A DNA stretch of 64,000 nucleotides from Escherichia phage nieznany: sequence record NC_052659.1, one strand, 5' to 3'. The notes below the pieces were generated by a model. That model was not told the origin of the DNA. It was given only the letters and a program-made list of their open reading frames with translations, and ran no database searches. Below are positions 16,883 to 64,000 of this stretch, piece after piece (positions within the stretch are counted from its first letter, which is position 1; every line of letters starts with the position of its first letter). The translations under genes and the position numbers were made by a program.

Positions 16883-17539
16883 ATGAAGAAGGGTAAACGT
16901 AAAGTTACCGTTCTCACAGAGAGGGGAGAAATCCCCTTGATTGTGGATGTTGAACGTAGATTGTGGGAAGGTGGTGTTATCAATGGAAAAAGGGTTAATA
17001 CATTCATAGATCCTTCCTATGCAGCTTGGAAAGGCATGTTTAATCGTGCATATCGTATGGAAAACATTAGACCAGGTTATAAAGATGTTACCGTGTGTGA
17101 TGCTTGGTTCACCTTTTCAAACTTTGATAACTGGTATCAAGAACATAACGTGGAAGGCTTTGTTTTAGATAAAGATCTTGTTCTTGAAGGAAATACTGTT
17201 TACTGTCCTGAATATTGTAGGTTTGTTCCTCCTTACATAAATACACTTTTAAGTTATGCTAAGAGGTATGAAAGAAAATACTTACTAGGAGCACATGTTA
17301 GGAAAGATGGTAAGATTTATGCCAAAGCTTCTGGGAGCAAAGGTAAGCATTTAGGTTACTTCGCTACAGAGGAAGAGGCACACTTCGCTTGGCTAAAGGA
17401 TAAAGCTAAGTCAATCAGGGAAACAGCGGATCGTTACAAAGAGGAAGAACATTTTTATCAAGAGGTGTACAACACTCTTGTAAACAAGGCGGATTTCTAT
17501 TGGCATCTGGCTGAAACAAAAACAGTGTTTCGAGGCTAA
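16883..17539 (+). CDS. homing endonuclease-like protein inserted between nrdA and nrdB (AP2-like domain)
   Basis: Paralog of 1590..2261; position equals that of mobE in T4 (established knowledge). Confidence 0.55.
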   Translation: MKKGKRKVTVLTERGEIPLIVDVERRLWEGGVINGKRVNTFIDPSYAAWKGMFNRAYRMENIRPGYKDVTVCDAWFTFSNFDNWYQEHNVEGFVLDKDLVLEGNTVYCPEYCRFVPPYINTLLSYAKRYERKYLLGAHVRKDGKIYAKASGSKGKHLGYFATEEEAHFAWLKDKAKSIRETADRYKEEEHFYQEVYNTLVNKADFYWHLAETKTVFRG

Positions 17540-26721: not shown

Positions 26722-26958
26722 ATGGGTAAACTAATTATGACAGTGGCTATTGATTTTGATGAAGTAGATGAAAGCCTCAACCTTTCACTTTCTACTGACG
26801 TAGATGGCGAAATGGATAATATTGAAGCAGCTACTGCTCTTTTCTTCAAAAAAGCCATTGAAGTTTATGCCGAACATGCTGCAAATCAGGCAGTAGATTA
26901 CGGTGGTATCGTGCGAGCTTTGGTTCACTCTACCGAGGACAATGACTGGGAAGACTAA
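26722..26958 (+). CDS. hypothetical acidic protein
   Basis: 78 aa ORF. Confidence 0.4.
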   Translation: MGKLIMTVAIDFDEVDESLNLSLSTDVDGEMDNIEAATALFFKKAIEVYAEHAANQAVDYGGIVRALVHSTEDNDWED

Positions 26959-27161
26959 TGGCTTACAATTATTACTGCATTTATGCACATGAAAAGAAGA
27001 AAGGTGACACTGGGACTAACGTTTATGCGGAGTCTGAATCTCATGCAAAAGAGATTGGTGCTATCCTTTTATCACGCTGGACTGGAAATAATTACAGTGC
27101 AGAAGATATGTTTGCAGAAGTGGATTCTAGTATCCAAGAAGGCAACATAACAACTACGTGA
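26958..27161 (+). CDS. hypothetical protein
   Basis: 67 aa ORF. Confidence 0.35.
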   Translation: MAYNYYCIYAHEKKKGDTGTNVYAESESHAKEIGAILLSRWTGNNYSAEDMFAEVDSSIQEGNITTT

Positions 27162-27180
27162 TATACTTATACTCCCTTCT

Positions 27181-27206
27181 CGGAGGGAGTATTTTTAAGG
27201 AGGGAT
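27181..27206 (+). terminator. hairpin ACTCCCTTCTCGGAGGGAGT + T-tract
   Basis: Seen in sequence. Confidence 0.5.
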
Positions 27207-27207
27207 T

Positions 27208-27402
27208 ATGCAGAGCGGAGAAGAACTTTTAGAGAAACAATTCTCAACGCGTCAACAAGCTTTAAGTTATATGGTTTTTCTAAGCAATCTTGATGTGAAT
27301 GAGATACTTTTACGGCGCGAAGGTAATTTCTGGAGCGTTAAATATCATGCAACAAGGTCTGTAATCTACCTGGAAGAGGCGGAATTCTCTTTGGTAGAAT
27401 GA
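27208..27402 (+). CDS. hypothetical protein
   Basis: 64 aa ORF. Confidence 0.35.
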   Translation: MQSGEELLEKQFSTRQQALSYMVFLSNLDVNEILLRREGNFWSVKYHATRSVIYLEEAEFSLVE

Positions 27403-27416
27403 TCCGAGGAGTAGTT

Positions 27417-27830
27417 ATGCGTTCAACTTTCACTGGCAAAATAAATGCTGGTTTGATTTTTACAGCAGTAAGCATTCTTAGCAAAAAGTTTAAAGTTGTT
27501 AACCTACCTGTGTGTGTCGATTTTGATCATGTTTTTGATCCTTCGAACCCCACTCGTTGCATAGTAAGGAGTAATGTTGAAAACCCAACAGAAAATCTTT
27601 TTTATGTAACAAAACCATCTCAAAGCATACTTAACCAGGTTGAGGCGAAATTGATACCTAACGGTAAATATTACTCCTTTTTACCTTGTAAGTCGGTTGA
27701 AGTAGAGAATAGCAGTACTTTCGCTAACAACTTGTCTGTATTCGTTTTCTTTGTTTCGCACGAAGATGAAACAGATGAAATGGTAGCAACAGTGAGATCA
27801 CTTTATGACTCTTTAGGGGGTTGTTTATAG
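27417..27830 (+). CDS. hypothetical protein
   Basis: GAGGAG then ATG 27417. Confidence 0.4.
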   Translation: MRSTFTGKINAGLIFTAVSILSKKFKVVNLPVCVDFDHVFDPSNPTRCIVRSNVENPTENLFYVTKPSQSILNQVEAKLIPNGKYYSFLPCKSVEVENSSTFANNLSVFVFFVSHEDETDEMVATVRSLYDSLGGCL

Positions 27831-28000
27831 TCAACAAGTGTGCGAAAATAATAAAGCCTGTGTAGATTTCATTATCAACGGTATTTGTGTTTGTAGAGTA
27901 GAATCTTTTTGGCTGCACGATACATATGTGACTGTAGCAGAGGTTATATCTGAACCAAAATTTAGTCATGCGGTTTCGTTAATAATTTGAGGAGGAAGGA

Positions 28001-40391: not shown

Positions 40392-40587
40392 TTCTACCTC
40401 CTCCGATGCTTTGTGCCGTACCATCCCAAGCCATTAGAATATTTGCCAATAGTTCACGAGGCTCTTTAAACCAAACTTCCATTTCATCAAGAATCTCGTC
40501 CGTGTCGTAAGTATAACCTGGAACACCAAGTTCACATTTCTTAAGATAGCTTTCTAACCAGCGGTGATAATTCTTAACCCCATTCAT
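40384..40587 (-). CDS. hypothetical protein
   Basis: 67 aa ORF. Confidence 0.4.
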   Translation of the reverse strand: MNGVKNYHRWLESYLKKCELGVPGYTYDTDEILDEMEVWFKEPRELLANILMAWDGTAQSIGGGRNE

Positions 40588-40912
40588 ACTGTGCTACCTT
40601 TTCTTTTACCCAATCTACACGATCTTTATCATAATGTTGAGTGCCAAGGAAAAGACCATTGTGGAAACTTTCCTCACCGAAAGGATAAATCGGATCTAAA
40701 CCATCTTCTTCAAATAACATTTTTAGTCTCTGTGATGTAGATTTCTTAGTTTCTGAGTTGTAGCTTGTGGTTATAAGCCAATCTTCCAAACAACGACACA
40801 AACCTTGACGAGAATCCCAAGGAAAAACACAATCTCCGACAGGAGCTTGTTCAGCCCATTTCAACCAGCCTTTAAAAAAGTTATACAGTATGTAGTCTTC
40901 AGTGTAATACAT
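40574..40912 (-). CDS. hypothetical protein, member of 3-copy paralog family (GLC..PF..RVxWVKxRV)
   Basis: AAGGAGGAG then ATG 40912; motif RVDWVKEKV. Confidence 0.45.
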   Translation of the reverse strand: MYYTEDYILYNFFKGWLKWAEQAPVGDCVFPWDSRQGLCRCLEDWLITTSYNSETKKSTSQRLKMLFEEDGLDPIYPFGEESFHNGLFLGTQHYDKDRVDWVKEKVAQYEWG

Positions 40913-40963
40913 TATCTCCTCCTTTACGTATACAATAACACCCCGAAGAACGGGGTGCAACTG

Positions 40964-41579: not shown

Positions 41580-41852
41580 TCACCCCCAAGAAATATTTAT
41601 ATATCTTACAATGTTTGCACTGTCTAAAGCCATGTTTGCACCACACCCACGCTCGCGCCAGTAACTAACAATACCTTCACAGATACTTTCTTGTATCTTC
41701 TTATCACTTGGCATTTCTAGTATAAGACTTGGGTTGTGGATGTTTATGTTATAATATCCTTCCTCTGCGGCTTGAGCTACCAATTTACTTACTTTTTCAA
41801 AGTACGGGGAATTAGTGGCATCTGCCATTGTTTTTAAGGTTTGTCTATCCAT
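41580..41852 (-). CDS. hypothetical protein
   Basis: 90 aa ORF. Confidence 0.4.
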   Translation of the reverse strand: MDRQTLKTMADATNSPYFEKVSKLVAQAAEEGYYNINIHNPSLILEMPSDKKIQESICEGIVSYWRERGCGANMALDSANIVRYINISWG

Positions 41853-42217
41853 TATTCTGCCTCATCATAGAAGAAATCCAACTCTTGTTCCAGTTGTTTA
41901 ACTCGATCCTTAACCCACTGTACACGTTTTTCATTAAACATGCAACGTTTTTCCTTACACTCTTGCTCAAAAGATTTTGCTGTGTTAAATGGGAAAGTTG
42001 TATCTAAGCCAGCGTTTTCAAAACTGGCTAATTGCATACCATAAACAGAATATGCTAAAGAATGATCGGCTCGAAATTCATCACTTATATACATACGTAG
42101 ACCTCGGCATAAGCCAACATCAGCGTAACCACTTTCTCGTGGAAAGAGACGGAGGTGTTCTAACCAATTATTATAGAAATCTAAAAGAATCCTTTTACAC
42201 TTCAAATCAATTGTCAT
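41852..42217 (-). CDS. hypothetical protein, paralog family member (RVQWVKDRV)
   Basis: AAGGAG then ATG 42217. Confidence 0.45.
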   Translation of the reverse strand: MTIDLKCKRILLDFYNNWLEHLRLFPRESGYADVGLCRGLRMYISDEFRADHSLAYSVYGMQLASFENAGLDTTFPFNTAKSFEQECKEKRCMFNEKRVQWVKDRVKQLEQELDFFYDEAE

Positions 42218-42617
42218 AAAAAGTTTCTCCTTCGTCGAACAAGTTGGCAAGATTGTTCACGGCAATCTGCGTGGAAAGAAGACAACTGTTTGCAGACACA
42301 TAAGCACGAGCTATTTTGTAAACATAGGCTTTCGTATTACAATTGTCCAGGATCGGAAGACTTTCGTCGATAGCATCTATAACACTAAACATCACATCTA
42401 AAACTTTAATGGTGAGTGTTGTATTTGTATCTTCGTAACCTTTTTCAATCCGACCTGAATAGAAAGCATAGTCCTCAACAGTTCGTCGTTTAAACTGCCG
42501 CATAAAATCGGAACCATCTGTAGCAGAATTGAACAAATTTTCAAAAAATACGTCCCATCCGGCAAAAAGGGCTGACAGCATGATTAAGTGATCTACAGAT
42601 TCATTTTCTTGTTTCAT
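42207..42617 (-). CDS. hypothetical protein
   Basis: 136 aa ORF. Confidence 0.45.
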   Translation of the reverse strand: MKQENESVDHLIMLSALFAGWDVFFENLFNSATDGSDFMRQFKRRTVEDYAFYSGRIEKGYEDTNTTLTIKVLDVMFSVIDAIDESLPILDNCNTKAYVYKIARAYVSANSCLLSTQIAVNNLANLFDEGETFYDN

Positions 42618-42625
42618 ATCCTCTC

Positions 42626-43303
42626 CTATTTAATGTTAAGTCTGGCACACAAACGAGAAACAGTTTTAGCATCCCATTTACCACCACGTGCTGTTGCTAT
42701 TTTCTTACTATTGAATTTTTCAGCAATAGTTTTGTAAGGTGTATTTAAATCTCTAAGGATCTCCAAGCGTTCACGGAATGTCTCTGCAAAAGCGTCTGCT
42801 TTAACAGAGTTGTATTCCATTTTTCCTTTTCTACGTGCAGCGGCAGTTTTAGGATTAGCACTACCTAATAAAACACCTTTACTTTTTGCTACAGCAAGAC
42901 CCTTTTTAATGCGATCAGCAATGCCTCTAACTTCTTGTTCAGCCAGAACAGATAGAAGTTGTATAACCATTTTATCTGCGTCTGGCATGATGGCTATCTT
43001 AACATCGATCATTTCTAGAAGAGTTGCTACGGAGGCGTTGTTACGACCCAAGCGGTCAACTTTAGCTACCAATAAAGTTGCTCCGGTAGCTTTACACATT
43101 TCAACCGCTTTAACCAGTTCCTTACGTTGCTTCCAATCGCCCTTACCCGAATAGTATTCAGAAAATTGACCAATAACTTCAGCATCAGGCACAGAGTCTA
43201 AGAAGTAACGGATATCGTTCTCTTGGCTCTCCATACCATATTGTGCCTCACCTTTTTTCTGTTTAGAAAGACGACTGTAAACAACAAACTTTTTCATAAC
43301 CAC
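42626..43303 (-). CDS. serine recombinase (resolvase/invertase family) with C-terminal HTH
   Basis: VYSRLSKQKK (catalytic Ser region), VAKVDRLGRN, C-terminal HTH-like KTIAEKFNSKKIATARGG; own TTGACA-17-TAAAGT promoter. Confidence 0.75.
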   Translation of the reverse strand: MVMKKFVVYSRLSKQKKGEAQYGMESQENDIRYFLDSVPDAEVIGQFSEYYSGKGDWKQRKELVKAVEMCKATGATLLVAKVDRLGRNNASVATLLEMIDVKIAIMPDADKMVIQLLSVLAEQEVRGIADRIKKGLAVAKSKGVLLGSANPKTAAARRKGKMEYNSVKADAFAETFRERLEILRDLNTPYKTIAEKFNSKKIATARGGKWDAKTVSRLCARLNIK

Positions 43304-43367
43304 TCCTAAACCATTGCTGTATTCTCACTTTACAAAACGAATAAACACTTGTCAAGGTATTTATTAT

Positions 43368-44965: not shown

Positions 44966-45189
44966 TCTTCCATCTCGAACCATTCAGGGAACACTTTGTG
45001 GAAGACACGTGTTGTTTCTAAGAGAAATTCCAACTCTTTTTCCAAATCTGCGTTCCAACCGTTTATTTTAACACGGATTGCCAATGCACTTGCACGGCGA
45101 CTCAATTCTTGACAGATTGGATCACGCAGAACTATTGAGTCATAAAACTGACAAACAGCCTCAAGTTCATACCAGTTATAATCCGACAT
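44962..45189 (-). CDS. hypothetical protein
   Basis: 75 aa ORF. Confidence 0.4.
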   Translation of the reverse strand: MSDYNWYELEAVCQFYDSIVLRDPICQELSRRASALAIRVKINGWNADLEKELEFLLETTRVFHKVFPEWFEMEE

Positions 45190-45515
45190 TATTCATCCTC
45201 CTCTGCAATACGATCTCTTACCCAATTAATCCTGTCCACGTTCAGGTGACATACCTTTGCATCTGATTCTAAGACATATGCATCGTAGTTCTCATTGAAA
45301 GGGAGTTCTTGACTCAACCCTTTGTGGTAAAACTGTGCGTGCATTTCATCTGACAAGGTTGTTATAATGGGGTTGTAATTACCTCTGTGCACATAATCGA
45401 ACAAGTTGGCACACAAACCACAATCCCGCCGAAAAGGTTTACCATCAGGAGCACCAACATCAATCCATGCTAGATAAATTTTATAAAACTCCATCAAATC
45501 TTTACTTGTTTTCAT
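45189..45515 (-). CDS. hypothetical protein, paralog family member (RINWVRDRI)
   Basis: 108 aa ORF. Confidence 0.45.
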   Translation of the reverse strand: MKTSKDLMEFYKIYLAWIDVGAPDGKPFRRDCGLCANLFDYVHRGNYNPIITTLSDEMHAQFYHKGLSQELPFNENYDAYVLESDAKVCHLNVDRINWVRDRIAEEDE

Positions 45516-48132: not shown

Positions 48133-49780
48133 ATTATGCTCCTTTGTAGATTATGTTGGTGCGTTCACACTCTGCCACCAGCAAGCCAAGCTTTGTAAAA
48201 CTTCATTAGACGTAAGCTACTCAACGGAACATTTTTACTCTCTTGCATGATAATCTCCTCTCATCGTTAGCCATCTTTCATGGCAATCATCAATCACCAA
48301 CATCATACGATCAATCTTAGGGAATTACAATCGAATTATCATAGGGGATTCCTATCAATTATCCCCTATATACCGATTATTTTTGACACCCCACTCTTGT
48401 ATAAAAAGTAACCCAAAATATCTACGGGGAGAGATTATTTCGGGACACCCTGTTTCATGGCAATCATGGCAAGAATATCTAATAGAATCAATATCATATG
48501 GCAAAAATCATGGCGCATACGTAAGAAGTGCTTAACGCGAATTTTCGGGCCGTCAGGTCCACGCAGCGACAATTCCCAAATATCATGCGAATGAGAATAA
48601 TTATCATTCGTATTCAATGACTTATGCAAAGCTCATGCCAACGTAGCGACAAGGTGGGCCACTTGATTATAAATCACACAAACACTTATTTATCAATGGT
48701 TTGGCAACCTCATCATATGACGGAACAATGTCAACTAATCCCGCTCATGACAAGCAGACTATTATTTATATGAGAATGATTATTATTTAAACGTTTATTA
48801 ATATAAAAACTAGAATAAATCAAGATTATTCTGATTTTATTTACGTTTAAGAGAAGGTGCTCAACATATCGCGTAGCGATAGTATTCGCCCCCCAAAAGA
48901 TTAGCCTTTATTTTCTTGTATGTTTATACACTATGTGCACACTATGCAACCTGTCGCTATTCGCTCATGTTGCTACGTGCAATTATTCATCTTGCTAATG
49001 ATGATCACACTGAACGATAGTGATAACTCTTGTAATTACCACAATGATTATTGTTATTGCGCTAATGTTATGATCTTGGTAATTACATATAATGCTAATA
49101 ATAAGCCAGCGCAATAAGTGTAAGCGTCATTACGCTTGCAATTATTGCAAGCTACGCAGTAACAAGAAATAACCGTCACCGATGGTTATGATTGTTGGGG
49201 TGTAGTTGGCTTATTATTAGCTCGCTATGTGTCCGGCATAGCGTGCTAATGATGACTCTGTGAATGATTAGTTTTGTAATGATTTCATTCAGGCACTATT
49301 TTGCTAATAGTTATTATTTTAATGGTTTCGTTTGTTATTGTTCGTTAGTTGGTTGTTTTGTCATGTTATCGTTATTTTGCTTAGTATTCATCATGGTTTG
49401 ATTGTTTGTCGTTATCAATCATCTTGCTATTATTCCTTTGATTATGATTAGTTTGCTTATTGTTTTATGTTGTTTGTTGGTTAGTTGTTGCGAACTATTA
49501 TCAACATTATAGTTATGCACTTATATTGCATAGATAAACATGGATAGATGATAATGGTTATCATTGCACCAGAAAGGAGGTAAAAGGGTGTTTTTGATGG
49601 TTTGTTGTTGGTTGTTGATCGATTTTAACCGCTTTAAATGGCTCTCTAACAGCCTGTAACCCTGGGATGTATGGTTATTCGTTTGCTGGTTGATTAGCTC
49701 GATACCACGATTTATTCAGTTTTGTTCTGTGTCGGTTTTTCATAGGCGAAAGCTATCAACATTGTTCGGGCAAAAAGAAA
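48133..49780. other. 1.65 kb noncoding, repeat-rich, strand-compositionally skewed region (G/T-rich tract 49300-49520; repeated GCTAAT(G/A)(A/T)T and CGTAGCGAC motifs)
   Basis: No convincing ORF; low-complexity GT-skew; at least five GCTAATGATGA-like copies (about 48991, 49058, 49092, 49243, 49303) and CGTAGCGAC-like copies in both orientations. Confidence 0.5.
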
Positions 49781-49797
49781 GGGCGCTTGGTGCGCCC
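49781..49797 (-). terminator. terminator hairpin GGGCGCACCAAGCGCCC followed by U-tract on minus strand (same element repeated at 52132)
   Basis: Identical 17-nt hairpin with AAAGAAA/TTTCTTT flanks at 49781 and 52132. Confidence 0.55.
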
Positions 49798-49813
49798 CTT
49801 GTTTTGTTGTCGA

Positions 49814-50047
49814 TTATAACGCTTCATAGATTGAGTAGATCCGGTTTGCCAGGTCATTACGAAAGCGGAATTTTTCATCACGTTTGATCATCAGATCCTT
49901 AAAACCATATTCTTTCAATGCTTCATTAACTTTATGGCGGCAAACGTTCATATTATCCTGCGCGTCACCAATAAACTTATTACTGTGATGCATTGCTTTG
50001 ATCTCTTCCTCTAATACCAGGGCAACTACTGCGATCATCTTTTTCAT
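49814..50047 (-). CDS. hypothetical small protein (PeSL-array gene)
   Basis: ORF preceded by stem-loop and promoter cassette. Confidence 0.4.
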   Translation of the reverse strand: MKKMIAVVALVLEEEIKAMHHSNKFIGDAQDNMNVCRHKVNEALKEYGFKDLMIKRDEKFRFRNDLANRIYSIYEAL

Positions 50048-50382: not shown

Positions 50383-50682
50383 TTAGATCGCTGTTTCCAG
50401 TAGTTCGGCTAACGTCTTACCGCCTGATAGTTGGTCTAACGTTTGCTCTTCTGGCAAGAAATTAGCTGATATTAAACCGACTTGATTCCCTTTGTGCCAG
50501 TTAGCCTGGCGGATGATTCCATCCTTTAAGGATTTTACCGCCATTGTGCAACCGTCGCCAAATGATTCATTTTTATGGTCCATCACTTCATAAGCGCCCA
50601 GTTTGCTGCTGTTAGGCACCATTAACGCGAACACATCACCAACAACCAGTTTTTCTACGGTAACAATAGCGATAGTTTCCAT
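50383..50682 (-). CDS. hypothetical small protein
   Basis: 99 aa ORF. Confidence 0.4.
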   Translation of the reverse strand: METIAIVTVEKLVVGDVFALMVPNSSKLGAYEVMDHKNESFGDGCTMAVKSLKDGIIRQANWHKGNQVGLISANFLPEEQTLDQLSGGKTLAELLETAI

Positions 50683-59492: not shown

Positions 59493-60946
59493 GTTTCCTC
59501 CTCTCTCATTATTCCACCTGCTTGGTTGATAGCACTTAAGACGATAGCCAAATCCTCGCGCAGGAAGGTTTCACTATGACCATCTTTCATGTGCAAGCGT
59601 TCTACACAGCCAATAGACGGTAGAATCTGATCAGTCTTAGACTTTAGCTTACTCTCTAACGCCCTGCAAGCTTGGTAGGACGGCAGATCGAACAATGCTA
59701 TACGGCGCATAGAGTAATTGTTGTTTGCATTCTGCCCTTTGATCCTGATATCACTGTCCTTTGCAATCCCCAACTTGTAAGCTCCCGTGTCTTCTCCGTA
59801 CTCATCAAGAATAATATTGATGTAAAATTCTTGCATATTTCTGTTCTTACAGCCTGGACAACCTTTCCCATTGAGATAATCGGTAGGTGTGATCGTTTGC
59901 TCTCCATGCTCCCTACATAGATATTTAAACTTGCTGTTATTGCTTACCTTATCAATGAATCCTATAAATTGATCCCCTCGTTCCTGGCAAGCTTTGGTCA
60001 TACGGTAGGCCCATTGTTCAGGAGTGTAATGATAATATTTAGAACAACGGCAAGGAAGGCCACCCCTTTTCAAATGACTCATCTTCATCTCAAATTTATT
60101 ATCGCATAAGCCTTCTTTACAATAATCATCCTCTGCACATATAGGACATTCTACAATCCAGTAAACCTGACGACCTAATCTATCTACTCTATCGCTACGA
60201 TAATATTTACGCTCTACATTATCAGGACAAGCTTTTATAAAATCTTCAACATGTTGTTTATCCTCCATAGTATTCCTTTGTTTCGTCATTTCTCTTTGAC
60301 AACTGTAGCATCCAGTCCCTTGTTTAGCACTGTTTACAGTGGTAGTGCACCATTGACCATGAACCTTACACTCACAAATCAACTTAGTGCGGGAACCGTT
60401 CCACGGTTCCACATAGCCTCTAACAATCCAGGGTTTTTCTTTATAAGCTTCTTCTACTTCTTCTTTATGTTTCTCCCATGCAATCGATGTTCTTTCTCTG
60501 TTTGCTTCTCCCATACACTTCCTGCATCCACTCCCGTTTTTCGCAGAAGATATAGAAGTAGACCTCCACTCCCCATGTAAAGCACAACAACAAACCAGTT
60601 TAGTATTCCATCCTTTCCATTCTCCGTGCCATCCTGTAACAGTCCAAAACTTACCTGCCTGATTGTAAGTGGTTTGCACTTCTTCTTTATATTGCTCCCA
60701 GGTTTTTGATTTGTTTATAGATACTGCTTTACTTATAATCTCCCTACCGCATTCTGGACAACCCCTCCCTAGTTTAGCGGTATTTATGCTTGTTGTTTTC
60801 CATTCTCCATGCAGAGCACAGATGCATCTAAGTTTAGTTTTATTGCCGTTCCACGGCTCAATATAATCTACAACAGTCCAAGACTTACCTTGATAAGCTT
60901 GTTTTATATCTGTTTTATATTGTTCCCAAGTGACTATTTTTGGCAC
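59486..60946 (-). CDS. zinc-finger repeat protein (three or four about 65-aa Cys/His modules) with possible C-terminal GIY-YIG-like nuclease domain
   Basis: Repeated W..Y.EPWNG..TKL.C.C..HGEW.T....AK.G.GC..C modules; C-terminal FYINIIL-x9-YKLGIA-x6-R resembles GIY-(10)-YIG-R. Confidence 0.35.
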   Translation of the reverse strand: MPKIVTWEQYKTDIKQAYQGKSWTVVDYIEPWNGNKTKLRCICALHGEWKTTSINTAKLGRGCPECGREIISKAVSINKSKTWEQYKEEVQTTYNQAGKFWTVTGWHGEWKGWNTKLVCCCALHGEWRSTSISSAKNGSGCRKCMGEANRERTSIAWEKHKEEVEEAYKEKPWIVRGYVEPWNGSRTKLICECKVHGQWCTTTVNSAKQGTGCYSCQREMTKQRNTMEDKQHVEDFIKACPDNVERKYYRSDRVDRLGRQVYWIVECPICAEDDYCKEGLCDNKFEMKMSHLKRGGLPCRCSKYYHYTPEQWAYRMTKACQERGDQFIGFIDKVSNNSKFKYLCREHGEQTITPTDYLNGKGCPGCKNRNMQEFYINIILDEYGEDTGAYKLGIAKDSDIRIKGQNANNNYSMRRIALFDLPSYQACRALESKLKSKTDQILPSIGCVERLHMKDGHSETFLREDLAIVLSAINQAGGIMREEETC

Positions 60947-61034
60947 ACCTCCCCCTTTAGCTATTAGTGCGAGCCTACAACAAAAGAATAACTAAAATCC
61001 CTCCATAACAAATGCCCCTTGCGGGGCATCTTTA

Positions 61035-63493: not shown

Positions 63494-63682
63494 TTAACCA
63501 ATTAGTTCAACCGATTTGCAAATGTAGATCCAAACTGGAGTGAGCATAAGAGCTATACCGAATGCACAATTCCACTTAATTCCCATTTCCTCTATTAGAG
63601 ACATGATTAAGCCAACAGCACTAATAATCAGATAGATCCCTAAGAAAGCCATTGTGAAGAATTCAGACATATTTAGCTCCAA
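63494..63682 (-). CDS. small membrane protein
   Basis: hydrophobic MAFLGIYLIISAVGLIMSLI. Confidence 0.35.
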   Translation of the reverse strand: MELNMSEFFTMAFLGIYLIISAVGLIMSLIEEMGIKWNCAFGIALMLTPVWIYICKSVELIG

Positions 63683-63984
63683 AGATTATCAAAATAATTA
63701 GCGAATAAAAGACGGCCTTCTAATCGTGCCTTCCTTTGATCTTCAGCATACACGATTTCTGGATTACCACTATCAATAAAAGCATTCTCCATCTTTTCTA
63801 AAATATTTAACCACTCTCTTCTACCTGTCTCCTCTTCTTCATCTGTATACGGCGCACTTCTATTTGGATACAAAACACGCATCAGTTTAGTTGGGATCAT
63901 GACAAACGTGCTATTGTTTGCCTTCTCACGGAAGGCTTTAATTCCTGCATAGATTACCTTCCCCAAAGCTGCATCCAAATCCAT
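63673..63984 (-). CDS. hypothetical protein
   Basis: 103 aa ORF. Confidence 0.4.
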   Translation of the reverse strand: MDLDAALGKVIYAGIKAFREKANNSTFVMIPTKLMRVLYPNRSAPYTDEEEETGRREWLNILEKMENAFIDSGNPEIVYAEDQRKARLEGRLLFANYFDNLWS

Positions 63985-64000
63985 CAGGTCACTTTCTTCT

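Follow-up and report, generated by a model that had tools for sequence, protein, structure and literature searches.

A conserved short serine recombinase in Phapecoctavirus phages: an old gene with a possible resolvase-type role

The recombinase locus

We analysed 64,000 nucleotides from Escherichia phage nieznany (sequence record NC_052659.1; the whole stretch is called the window below) with regard to a gene for a small serine recombinase, an open reading frame (ORF) of 225 codons at window positions 42626..43303. An earlier account made from the letters of the DNA (the sequence-only reading) had located the gene in a block of small early genes and had given it a promoter of its own. The location is borne out, with the correction that the gene lies on the - strand, and the promoter-like site is found where it was described. 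The features at the locus are as follows.

42626..43297, - strand: serine recombinase coding sequence, 223 amino acids plus stop (ATG start, Pfam PF00239 match, 672-nt coding sequence in annotated relatives)
43304..43308, - strand: Shine-Dalgarno sequence AGGAG, 6 nt 5' of the ATG at 43297 (visible in the sequence itself)
43327..43355, - strand: sigma-70-type promoter-like site TTGACA-17-TAAAGT, 10/12 matches in a consensus scan, presumed to function as a promoter

Translation likely starts at the ATG at 43297 rather than at the GTG at 43303, because AGGAG is spaced 6 nt from the former and 0 nt from the latter, and because the annotated copies agree: in all those examined among related phage records the coding sequence measures 672 nt. 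The gene is separated from its neighbours by 64 bp upstream and 8 bp downstream. Matches to the sigma-70 consensus are not in excess in this region (11 found against 9.4 expected in shuffled sequences). The promoter reading of 43327..43355 is supported by the fact that the site fills the sole 64-bp gap 5' of the gene, and also by the TTGACA or TTGACT boxes, each with a -10-like hexamer, that precede the orthologs of three other phage groups (Justusliebigvirus, a Klebsiella relative and Shewanella phage 1/40; seen by eye rather than scanned). Early transcription of the recombinase by host RNA polymerase, starting at this sigma-70 promoter, is probable.

Catalytic and DNA-binding domains

The sequence-only reading had called the product a small serine recombinase, and profile searches agree. 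Residues 7-144 match the N-terminal Resolvase domain PF00239 with 65.9 bits, where the cutoff is 23.3 (E=5.4e-18; residue numbers and domain limits refer to the 225-residue ORF), and the best phage-family match is PHROG 125, 'DNA invertase' (E=1e-32). Sequence comparison with the PDB ranks Tn3 and gamma-delta resolvase first, with residues 47-148 aligned at E about 3e-6. PF00239 is matched by all 51 of 51 homologs collected, and in their alignment, with identities down to 32%, residues Y9, R11, S13, D83, R84, L85, R87 and E124 are invariant. Among these are the Y-x-R-x-S nucleophile motif and the D-R-L-x-R motif, so that both the catalytic-serine region and the DRLxR motif named earlier are present in the query and throughout the family.

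In a confident AlphaFold2 model built on the 51-homolog alignment (mean predicted local distance difference test score, pLDDT, 90.7) a mixed alpha/beta catalytic domain takes up about residues 5-140; the long E-helix spans 111-141, and four C-terminal helices form a domain at 151-221. Foldseek relates it with probability 1.00 to the catalytic domains of Sin, gamma-delta-type enzymes and integrases; the longest alignments (250-265 columns) are with large serine integrases of the Bxb1 type. Judging from motifs and predicted fold, the gene almost certainly encodes an active serine recombinase.

The C-terminal part is of a different kind than had been supposed. The proposed profile check for Resolvase plus the helix-turn-helix (HTH) family HTH_7 gives a divided answer: the Resolvase half holds, and for HTH_7 (PF02796) there is no match in the query even at E up to 1, and none in the 51 homologs. 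The query has a single further Pfam match: residues 189-218 resemble the beginning of PF07508, 'Recombinase', at E=0.003, which is below cutoff, and just positions 19-48 of the 102 in that profile are covered. Among the 51 family members PF07508 is found in 30 and PF20552 (HTH_62) in 12. By these profiles the DNA-binding domain is an HTH of the large-serine-recombinase type (N-terminal part of PF07508, or HTH_62) and not HTH_7. The protein shows the architecture of short serine recombinases with such an HTH, that is, PF00239 followed by the PF07508 N-terminal part or PF20552 in some 215-250 residues. It represents a distinct subfamily, in which a catalytic domain of resolvase type is followed by the E-helix and by a short HTH resembling that of large serine recombinases.

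Two narrower assignments were rejected. The named NCBIfam equivalogs (YneB, XisF, Mpi, CcrB) all score far below cutoff, the best being YneB with 32 bits against 175. An IS607-type TnpA is incompatible with the N-terminal position of the catalytic domain, and tnpB or a transposase is named in 0 of 58 annotated neighbour genes.

Distribution and annotation

The 3-kb surroundings of the recombinase are 97.6-99.1% identical to 63 Phapecoctavirus phage records. By this similarity the phage belongs to Phapecoctavirus (phAPEC8-like, Stephanstirmvirinae), virulent myoviruses of roughly 130-160 kb, which replaces the earlier premise of a T4-like lytic phage. The recombinase is a normal, widely annotated component of the Stephanstirmvirinae. 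Start codon aside, the identical protein occurs in 61 GenBank phage records, in which it is labelled hypothetical protein, DNA invertase, resolvase, serine recombinase or recombinase family protein; several records (e.g. MT496970, OR352956, LR597654) misname it 'methionine ABC transporter ATP-binding protein'. In other records it is the 70-residue gene upstream of the recombinase that is named an ABC transporter protein, a propagated misannotation. As an object, then, the gene is not new, being mostly correctly annotated in public records already.

Relatives with 52-57% identity were found in Justusliebigvirus (phi92-like) and in members of the subfamily from Klebsiella and Serratia, relatives with 35-38% identity in Vibrio and Shewanella phages of 127-149 kb, and relatives with 30% identity in at least two records of Vibrio phage ICP1. 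A search of 5,426 complete Escherichia coli genomes (20,395 records) with the recombinase region yielded no match, and integration or a plasmid-prophage state is unsupported because no phage DNA was found in these genomes. We found no experimental work on this gene in the literature. One paper guesses at a resolvase 'keeping concatemers as single genomes' (PMC10282059), and a genome report on relatives states that no specific recombinases are present (PMC5374246).

Ancestral position and relocation

In Justusliebigvirus, the Klebsiella relative and Shewanella phage 1/40 the recombinase belongs to a co-directional block that runs from PhoH and an HslV-type protease through the recombinase to a DprA-like gene, with further genes in between. 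A metagenomic phage contig of 89 kb likewise holds PhoH, a ClpP-like protease and the recombinase as part of the block. In Phapecoctavirus the PhoH/protease/DprA block is intact and the recombinase is missing from it; the gene stands 16 kb away, on the other strand, among the small early genes. The vacated place can be pointed out in the window.

27162..27207, + strand: empty ancestral recombinase slot, occupied by a terminator-like hairpin only (ACTCCCT-N6-AGGGAGT, then a T-run) between two small ORFs

These two ORFs (26958-27161 and 27208-27402) share 66% and 35% amino-acid identity with the genes that flank the Justusliebigvirus recombinase. The slot is collinear in the 57 Phapecoctavirus matches listed, and three oddly assembled WPEC records match in part. 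A clean empty site for the new location was sought in Justusliebigvirus and could not be defined, the early block being too divergent, with most neighbours lacking a homolog.

The recombinase is 57% identical to its Justusliebigvirus counterpart, and 81 orthologous proteins of the two genomes have a median identity of 62% (quartiles 48-73%). A crude neighbour-joining tree brings most copies from large myoviruses together and leaves two (L100, L012) elsewhere. Given the conserved block linkage, an identity within the range of the orthologs and the grouping in the tree, the simplest reading of the comparisons is an old, vertically inherited gene of Stephanstirmvirinae and related virulent myoviruses, which would have been relocated once within the genome, in an ancestor of Phapecoctavirus and the phiWec181/188 lineage.

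Selection and integrity of the gene

Among eight Phapecoctavirus sequences the recombinase has 40 variable nucleotide sites and only 2 variable amino-acid positions, whereas in the small genes downstream 16 and 21 variable sites go with 6 and 7 variable residues, respectively. Such a ratio indicates strong purifying selection, and it therefore appears that the function of the recombinase is maintained. The gene occupies the same location in all 63 Phapecoctavirus records, without presence/absence polymorphism. The earlier suggestion of a recent mobile insertion does not agree with this fixed position and strong selection, yet there has been one ancient move out of the ancestral slot; by these comparisons the recombinase does not appear to be an active mobile element.

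A deviating copy occurs in phage Schickermooser (NC_048196; L006 3001-3400), where six small deletions (1, 1, 7, 1, 2 and 7 nt) are confined to the first half of the gene. The flanks are clean and only the C-terminal 128 codons are annotated. This copy is either a pseudogene or the result of a local sequence error.

Search for recombination sites

Inverted and direct repeats were searched in the 64-kb window and in the complete genome of vB_Ec-G1, a 99%-identical relative whose 151,245 bp were assembled for comparison. The window holds no credible inverted repeats, only terminator hairpins and cassettes of a promoter with a stem-loop; in vB_Ec-G1 no inverted repeat of at least 18 nt was found beyond the same two classes. 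The remark in the sequence-only reading that no inverted crossover sites flank the gene thus stands for both sequences, and its suggestion that about 26-bp sites might lie outside the window finds no support in the full vB_Ec-G1 genome. The gap upstream of the gene does contain a weak candidate.

43340..43365, no strand assigned: imperfect 26-bp dyad with the -35 box at its centre; two 9-nt arms with 1 mismatch enclose a spacer of 8 nt (weak candidate for an operator or a binding site)

This dyad is unique in the window and overlaps variable site 43348, one of four in the 64-bp gap. Dyads of its quality occur at 2.25 per kb in the window, so that one is expected in the gap with a chance of about 0.14, and as a recombination site it was rejected as not above chance.

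Stronger hairpins lie 5' of several orthologs, overlapping the promoter or ribosome-binding site, with sequences that are lineage-specific (by eye). The conserved dyads at these places were also discarded as sites, being mostly terminator-like stems with T-runs (Shewanella, Vibrio, ICP1, L026); they look less like a common recombination site than like a shield against read-through into the gene. Directly 5' of the recombinase in Shewanella phage 1/40 and a relative there is a 34-bp hairpin with 12-nt arms and a 10-nt centre that contains the -10 box. Its sequence in one of the two (L013 5956-5989) is the exact reverse complement of that in the other (L014 5958-5991), and one flip explains six differences; this is probably a small hairpin-mediated inversion.

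The promoter/stem-loop cassettes were likewise not retained as recombination sites: their stems vary in sequence yet stay paired, and therefore a structural role, as RNA or hairpin, fits them. At least 15 of them, each a sigma-70-like promoter with a GC-rich stem-loop in front of a small early ORF, lie on the - strand between window positions 50600 and 57200, and the corresponding block of vB_Ec-G1 is found at 120.5-130 kb. We take them to resemble the promoter-early-stem-loop cassettes of T4-type phages. It is in this block that exact matches between Phapecoctavirus and Justusliebigvirus reach their greatest length, up to 172 nt.

Possible roles of the recombinase

The favoured reading, which we put forward tentatively and by analogy, is a resolvase-type role on the phage's own replicating DNA. 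Each phage genome would contain one short dyad site for a recombinase dimer to bind, and two site-bound dimers on replicating DNA would join into a tetramer. Ser13 would then cut both strands and subunit rotation would swap the partners, so that joined genome copies might be resolved or cyclised, as is done by a plasmid multimer-resolution system or by P1 Cre/lox. Full-length relatives with 35-40% identity at 96-98% coverage are present in 126 plasmid records, 106 of them non-mobilizable, and show the same architecture of Resolvase with PF07508 or HTH_62. Three of these plasmids (5.7-6.4 kb) were opened: the one from Marinovum carries RepA, a ParA-like gene and the recombinase, and in the other two the recombinase lies among unnamed genes. 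A lone serine recombinase on a small plasmid is conventionally read as a multimer-resolution enzyme (e.g. PMC3632715). Multimer resolution, one of the roles suggested earlier, is therefore backed by relatives of the same architecture on tiny plasmids, and lacks the res site that it would call for; it is the best remaining option for a single reason, the family context.

Several observations weigh against this role. No recombination site was found in the window, in the vB_Ec-G1 genome or in the gaps around the gene, and these gaps measure 64 and 8 bp where small plasmids have about 650 bp upstream of the recombinase. For a phage that packages its DNA from concatemers, dimer resolution is not an evident need. 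The resolvase role of the plasmid relatives is itself presumed from their context, and the Schickermooser deletions, if real, would mean that the recombinase is dispensable in the laboratory. Nonetheless, our best explanation as a whole is that an old gene, passed on by vertical descent, encodes a functional small serine recombinase with a resolvase-type mechanism; we would place it somewhat below an even chance.

The neighbourhoods of 80 relatives from IMG/VR are mixed: the gene is found beside terminase, or within early exonuclease-type modules in contigs of about 34 kb. No tail-fibre gene is present among the 19 recurrent neighbour clusters inspected, and it is for the tail fibres that the sequence-only reading had proposed a Gin/Cin-like host-range switch. 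The enzyme class would fit such a switch and these phages have many tail fibres and spikes. Nonetheless, the recombinase gene is far from the fibre genes, credible repeats are absent, and so is HTH_7. The 24-kb tail-fibre/baseplate block is collinear on one strand in the sampled matches from 64 records that hold at least 80% of it; extra places of the block were noted 8 times among 237 records, those listed being record ends, and the variation among records consists of module replacement. These results largely refute the fibre switch, the least probable of all the roles considered.

Inversion may be sought elsewhere, since a segment of about 1.2-1.5 kb with divergent early promoters is inverted between vB_Ec-G1 and the Justusliebigvirus phage JohannJBalmer, whose sequence was assembled as well.

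Window 63673-64000 (edge only); vB_Ec-G1 114014-115700; JohannJBalmer 73147-74420; L107, L108, L109: divergent early-promoter segment

Both orientations exist within Justusliebigvirus at about 95% flank identity: type A in JohannJBalmer and OZ035773 (direct alignment; phi92 and others are assigned to it from single collinear matches) and type B in PHB05 and VEcB MT932211 (direct alignment; PD06 and others from split matches). The Phapecoctavirus segment is of type B. It might be argued that the recombinase is the invertase of this segment, given that genomes of both types are among those in which the gene was matched and that many records name it 'DNA invertase'. If so, a strictly virulent phage would use programmed DNA inversion as a switch by which the genes it expresses first are fused or put in new combinations. 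The junctions, however, are non-reciprocal: two small genes are additional in type A, and bas62_0100, a single ORF there, corresponds to two ORFs in type B. No convincing inverted repeats were found at the ends of the inversion, part of the segment is only 73-89% identical between the types against 94-98% for the flanks, and in every Phapecoctavirus match listed (35 of about 60) the segment is collinear on one strand, its orientation thus appearing fixed. On these alignments the segment reads as an old rearrangement kept as two alleles, and a programmed switch of early gene order or fusion is quite improbable.

A mobile origin would see in the gene the recombinase of a small selfish cassette, or an integrase, that marks an insertion. 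The gene and its promoter indeed occupy different places in Phapecoctavirus and in the other genera, and on an Aeromonas sp. chromosome (L097 8001-10218) a small recombinase with 42% identity is convergent with a large serine recombinase of 501 residues, on the margin of an integrated element with a DUF5906 primase and a satellite-like appearance. Across the subfamily, on the other hand, only one relocation is seen and the position is fixed in the 63 records; flanking repeats are lacking, the identity to the Justusliebigvirus copy equals the genome average, and no copies occur in the E. coli genomes. Among 50,697 phage records there is no cassette of this kind that recurs, at a nucleotide identity above 90%, in unrelated phages or at several unrelated sites. 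The chance of a selfish cassette is accordingly slim, and below that of the early-promoter invertase.

The target could also be foreign DNA (host sites, co-infecting phages, satellites or plasmids), with the recombinase serving as a weapon or for counter-defence by cutting or rearranging one specific site there. This would suit a gene that appears to be expressed early from a promoter of host type and whose small early neighbours are of a kind typically engaged in host takeover, as well as the failure to find a site in the phage genome. Moreover, two ICP1 records carry a relative with 30% identity, and phage-satellite conflict over serine recombinases has been documented for ICP1 and PLE (PMC9638900); the ICP1 protein Adi, with which that paper deals, is a different protein from the present recombinase. 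The ancestral synteny with DprA-like, ligase and PhoH genes suggests phage DNA metabolism instead, the extreme conservation across hosts from Shewanella to E. coli fits a target within the phage better, and a search for defence and anti-defence genes with PADLOC gave no match for the recombinase or four neighbours. Such action ranks next after the resolvase-type role on the phage's own DNA, which is the best supported, and we regard it as unlikely. Lastly, a domesticated DNA-binding regulator that no longer recombines would explain why no site pair was found, and it would suit the terminator-like hairpins or dyads seen by eye in the promoter or leader region of several orthologs, a hint that the gene may be autoregulated or otherwise strictly controlled. 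Were catalysis lost, one would not expect the nucleophilic serine and the catalytic arginine and aspartate to be invariant in 51 homologs down to 32% identity; a regulator appears about as improbable as the early-promoter switch.

Other observations in the window

Around the recombinase there are paralogous small early genes with 26-30% identity (40574-40960, 41852-42250 and 45189-45515, - strand). At 27399-27990 an extra G in a G-run splits an aminoacyl-tRNA-synthetase-like gene into ORFs of 143 and 50 residues, which form a single ORF of 196 residues in vB_Ec-G1. Two ORFs of about 220 residues (1590-2261 and 16883-17539) are HNH endonucleases in a relative's annotation; one of them lies between two genes for ribonucleotide-reductase subunits, and one and the same Justusliebigvirus region resembles both, so that they may be copies of a homing endonuclease. 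Compared to vB_Ec-G1, several indels and replacements are seen at 48186-50016 and 59502-61032, all in blocks of small early genes, and vB_Ec-G1 carries 5.1 kb extra at window position 48186/48217.

Significance

Phapecoctavirus phages are therapy candidates, and in genome screens a gene called 'recombinase' or 'integrase' raises a safety warning. The present gene appears as a conserved core gene of a virulent lineage rather than a lysogeny gene, with no integrated or plasmid-borne copies in 5,426 E. coli genomes. This raises the question which task and which site a strongly conserved site-specific recombinase has in phages that never integrate. In addition, a short, self-contained recombinase with a simple site would be a potential tool for genome engineering.

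Comparison with known systems

The phage-encoded site-specific recombinase Cre of P1 acts on loxP, a single site per genome, and cyclises or monomerises the phage DNA; it matters most in recA- hosts. The parallel is one of function only: Cre is a tyrosine recombinase of a temperate plasmid-prophage, and no lox-like site was found here.

Gin, Cin, Hin and Pin are likewise small serine recombinases, some of them phage-encoded (Mu, P1). The present protein differs from them by the absence of HTH_7, of inverted repeats of at least 26 bp, of linkage to tail fibres and of orientation polymorphism in the fibre block. With Tn3 and gamma-delta resolvase and with Sin it shares the catalytic fold, the Y-x-R-x-S and D-R-L-x-R motifs, the long E-helix and a size of about 200 residues, the Sin catalytic domain being among the top structural matches (template modelling, TM, score about 0.7 on the target). 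Identity to these enzymes is about 25%; the phage protein is without HTH_7 and its host is a virulent phage. Neither an adjacent res of about 114-120 bp with three subsites, as in the Tn3 family, nor a neighbour annotated as transposase accompanies the gene (gaps 64 and 8 bp).

The C-terminal helices match the first 50 or so positions of PF07508, and HTH_62, as found in the integrases of Bxb1, phiC31 and TP901-1. Unlike these large serine recombinases of 450-600 residues, the 223-residue phage protein has neither zinc ribbon nor coiled coil and contains no more than the first part of the recombinase domain; there is also no sign of integration in the 5,426 E. coli genomes. Full-length homologs with the same architecture are those of non-mobilizable plasmids of 5.7-7 kb (pMaD11 of Marinovum algicola, and plasmids of Klebsiella and Synechococcus), which have about 650 bp of non-coding sequence upstream of the recombinase and are presumed, by context, to encode multimer resolvases.

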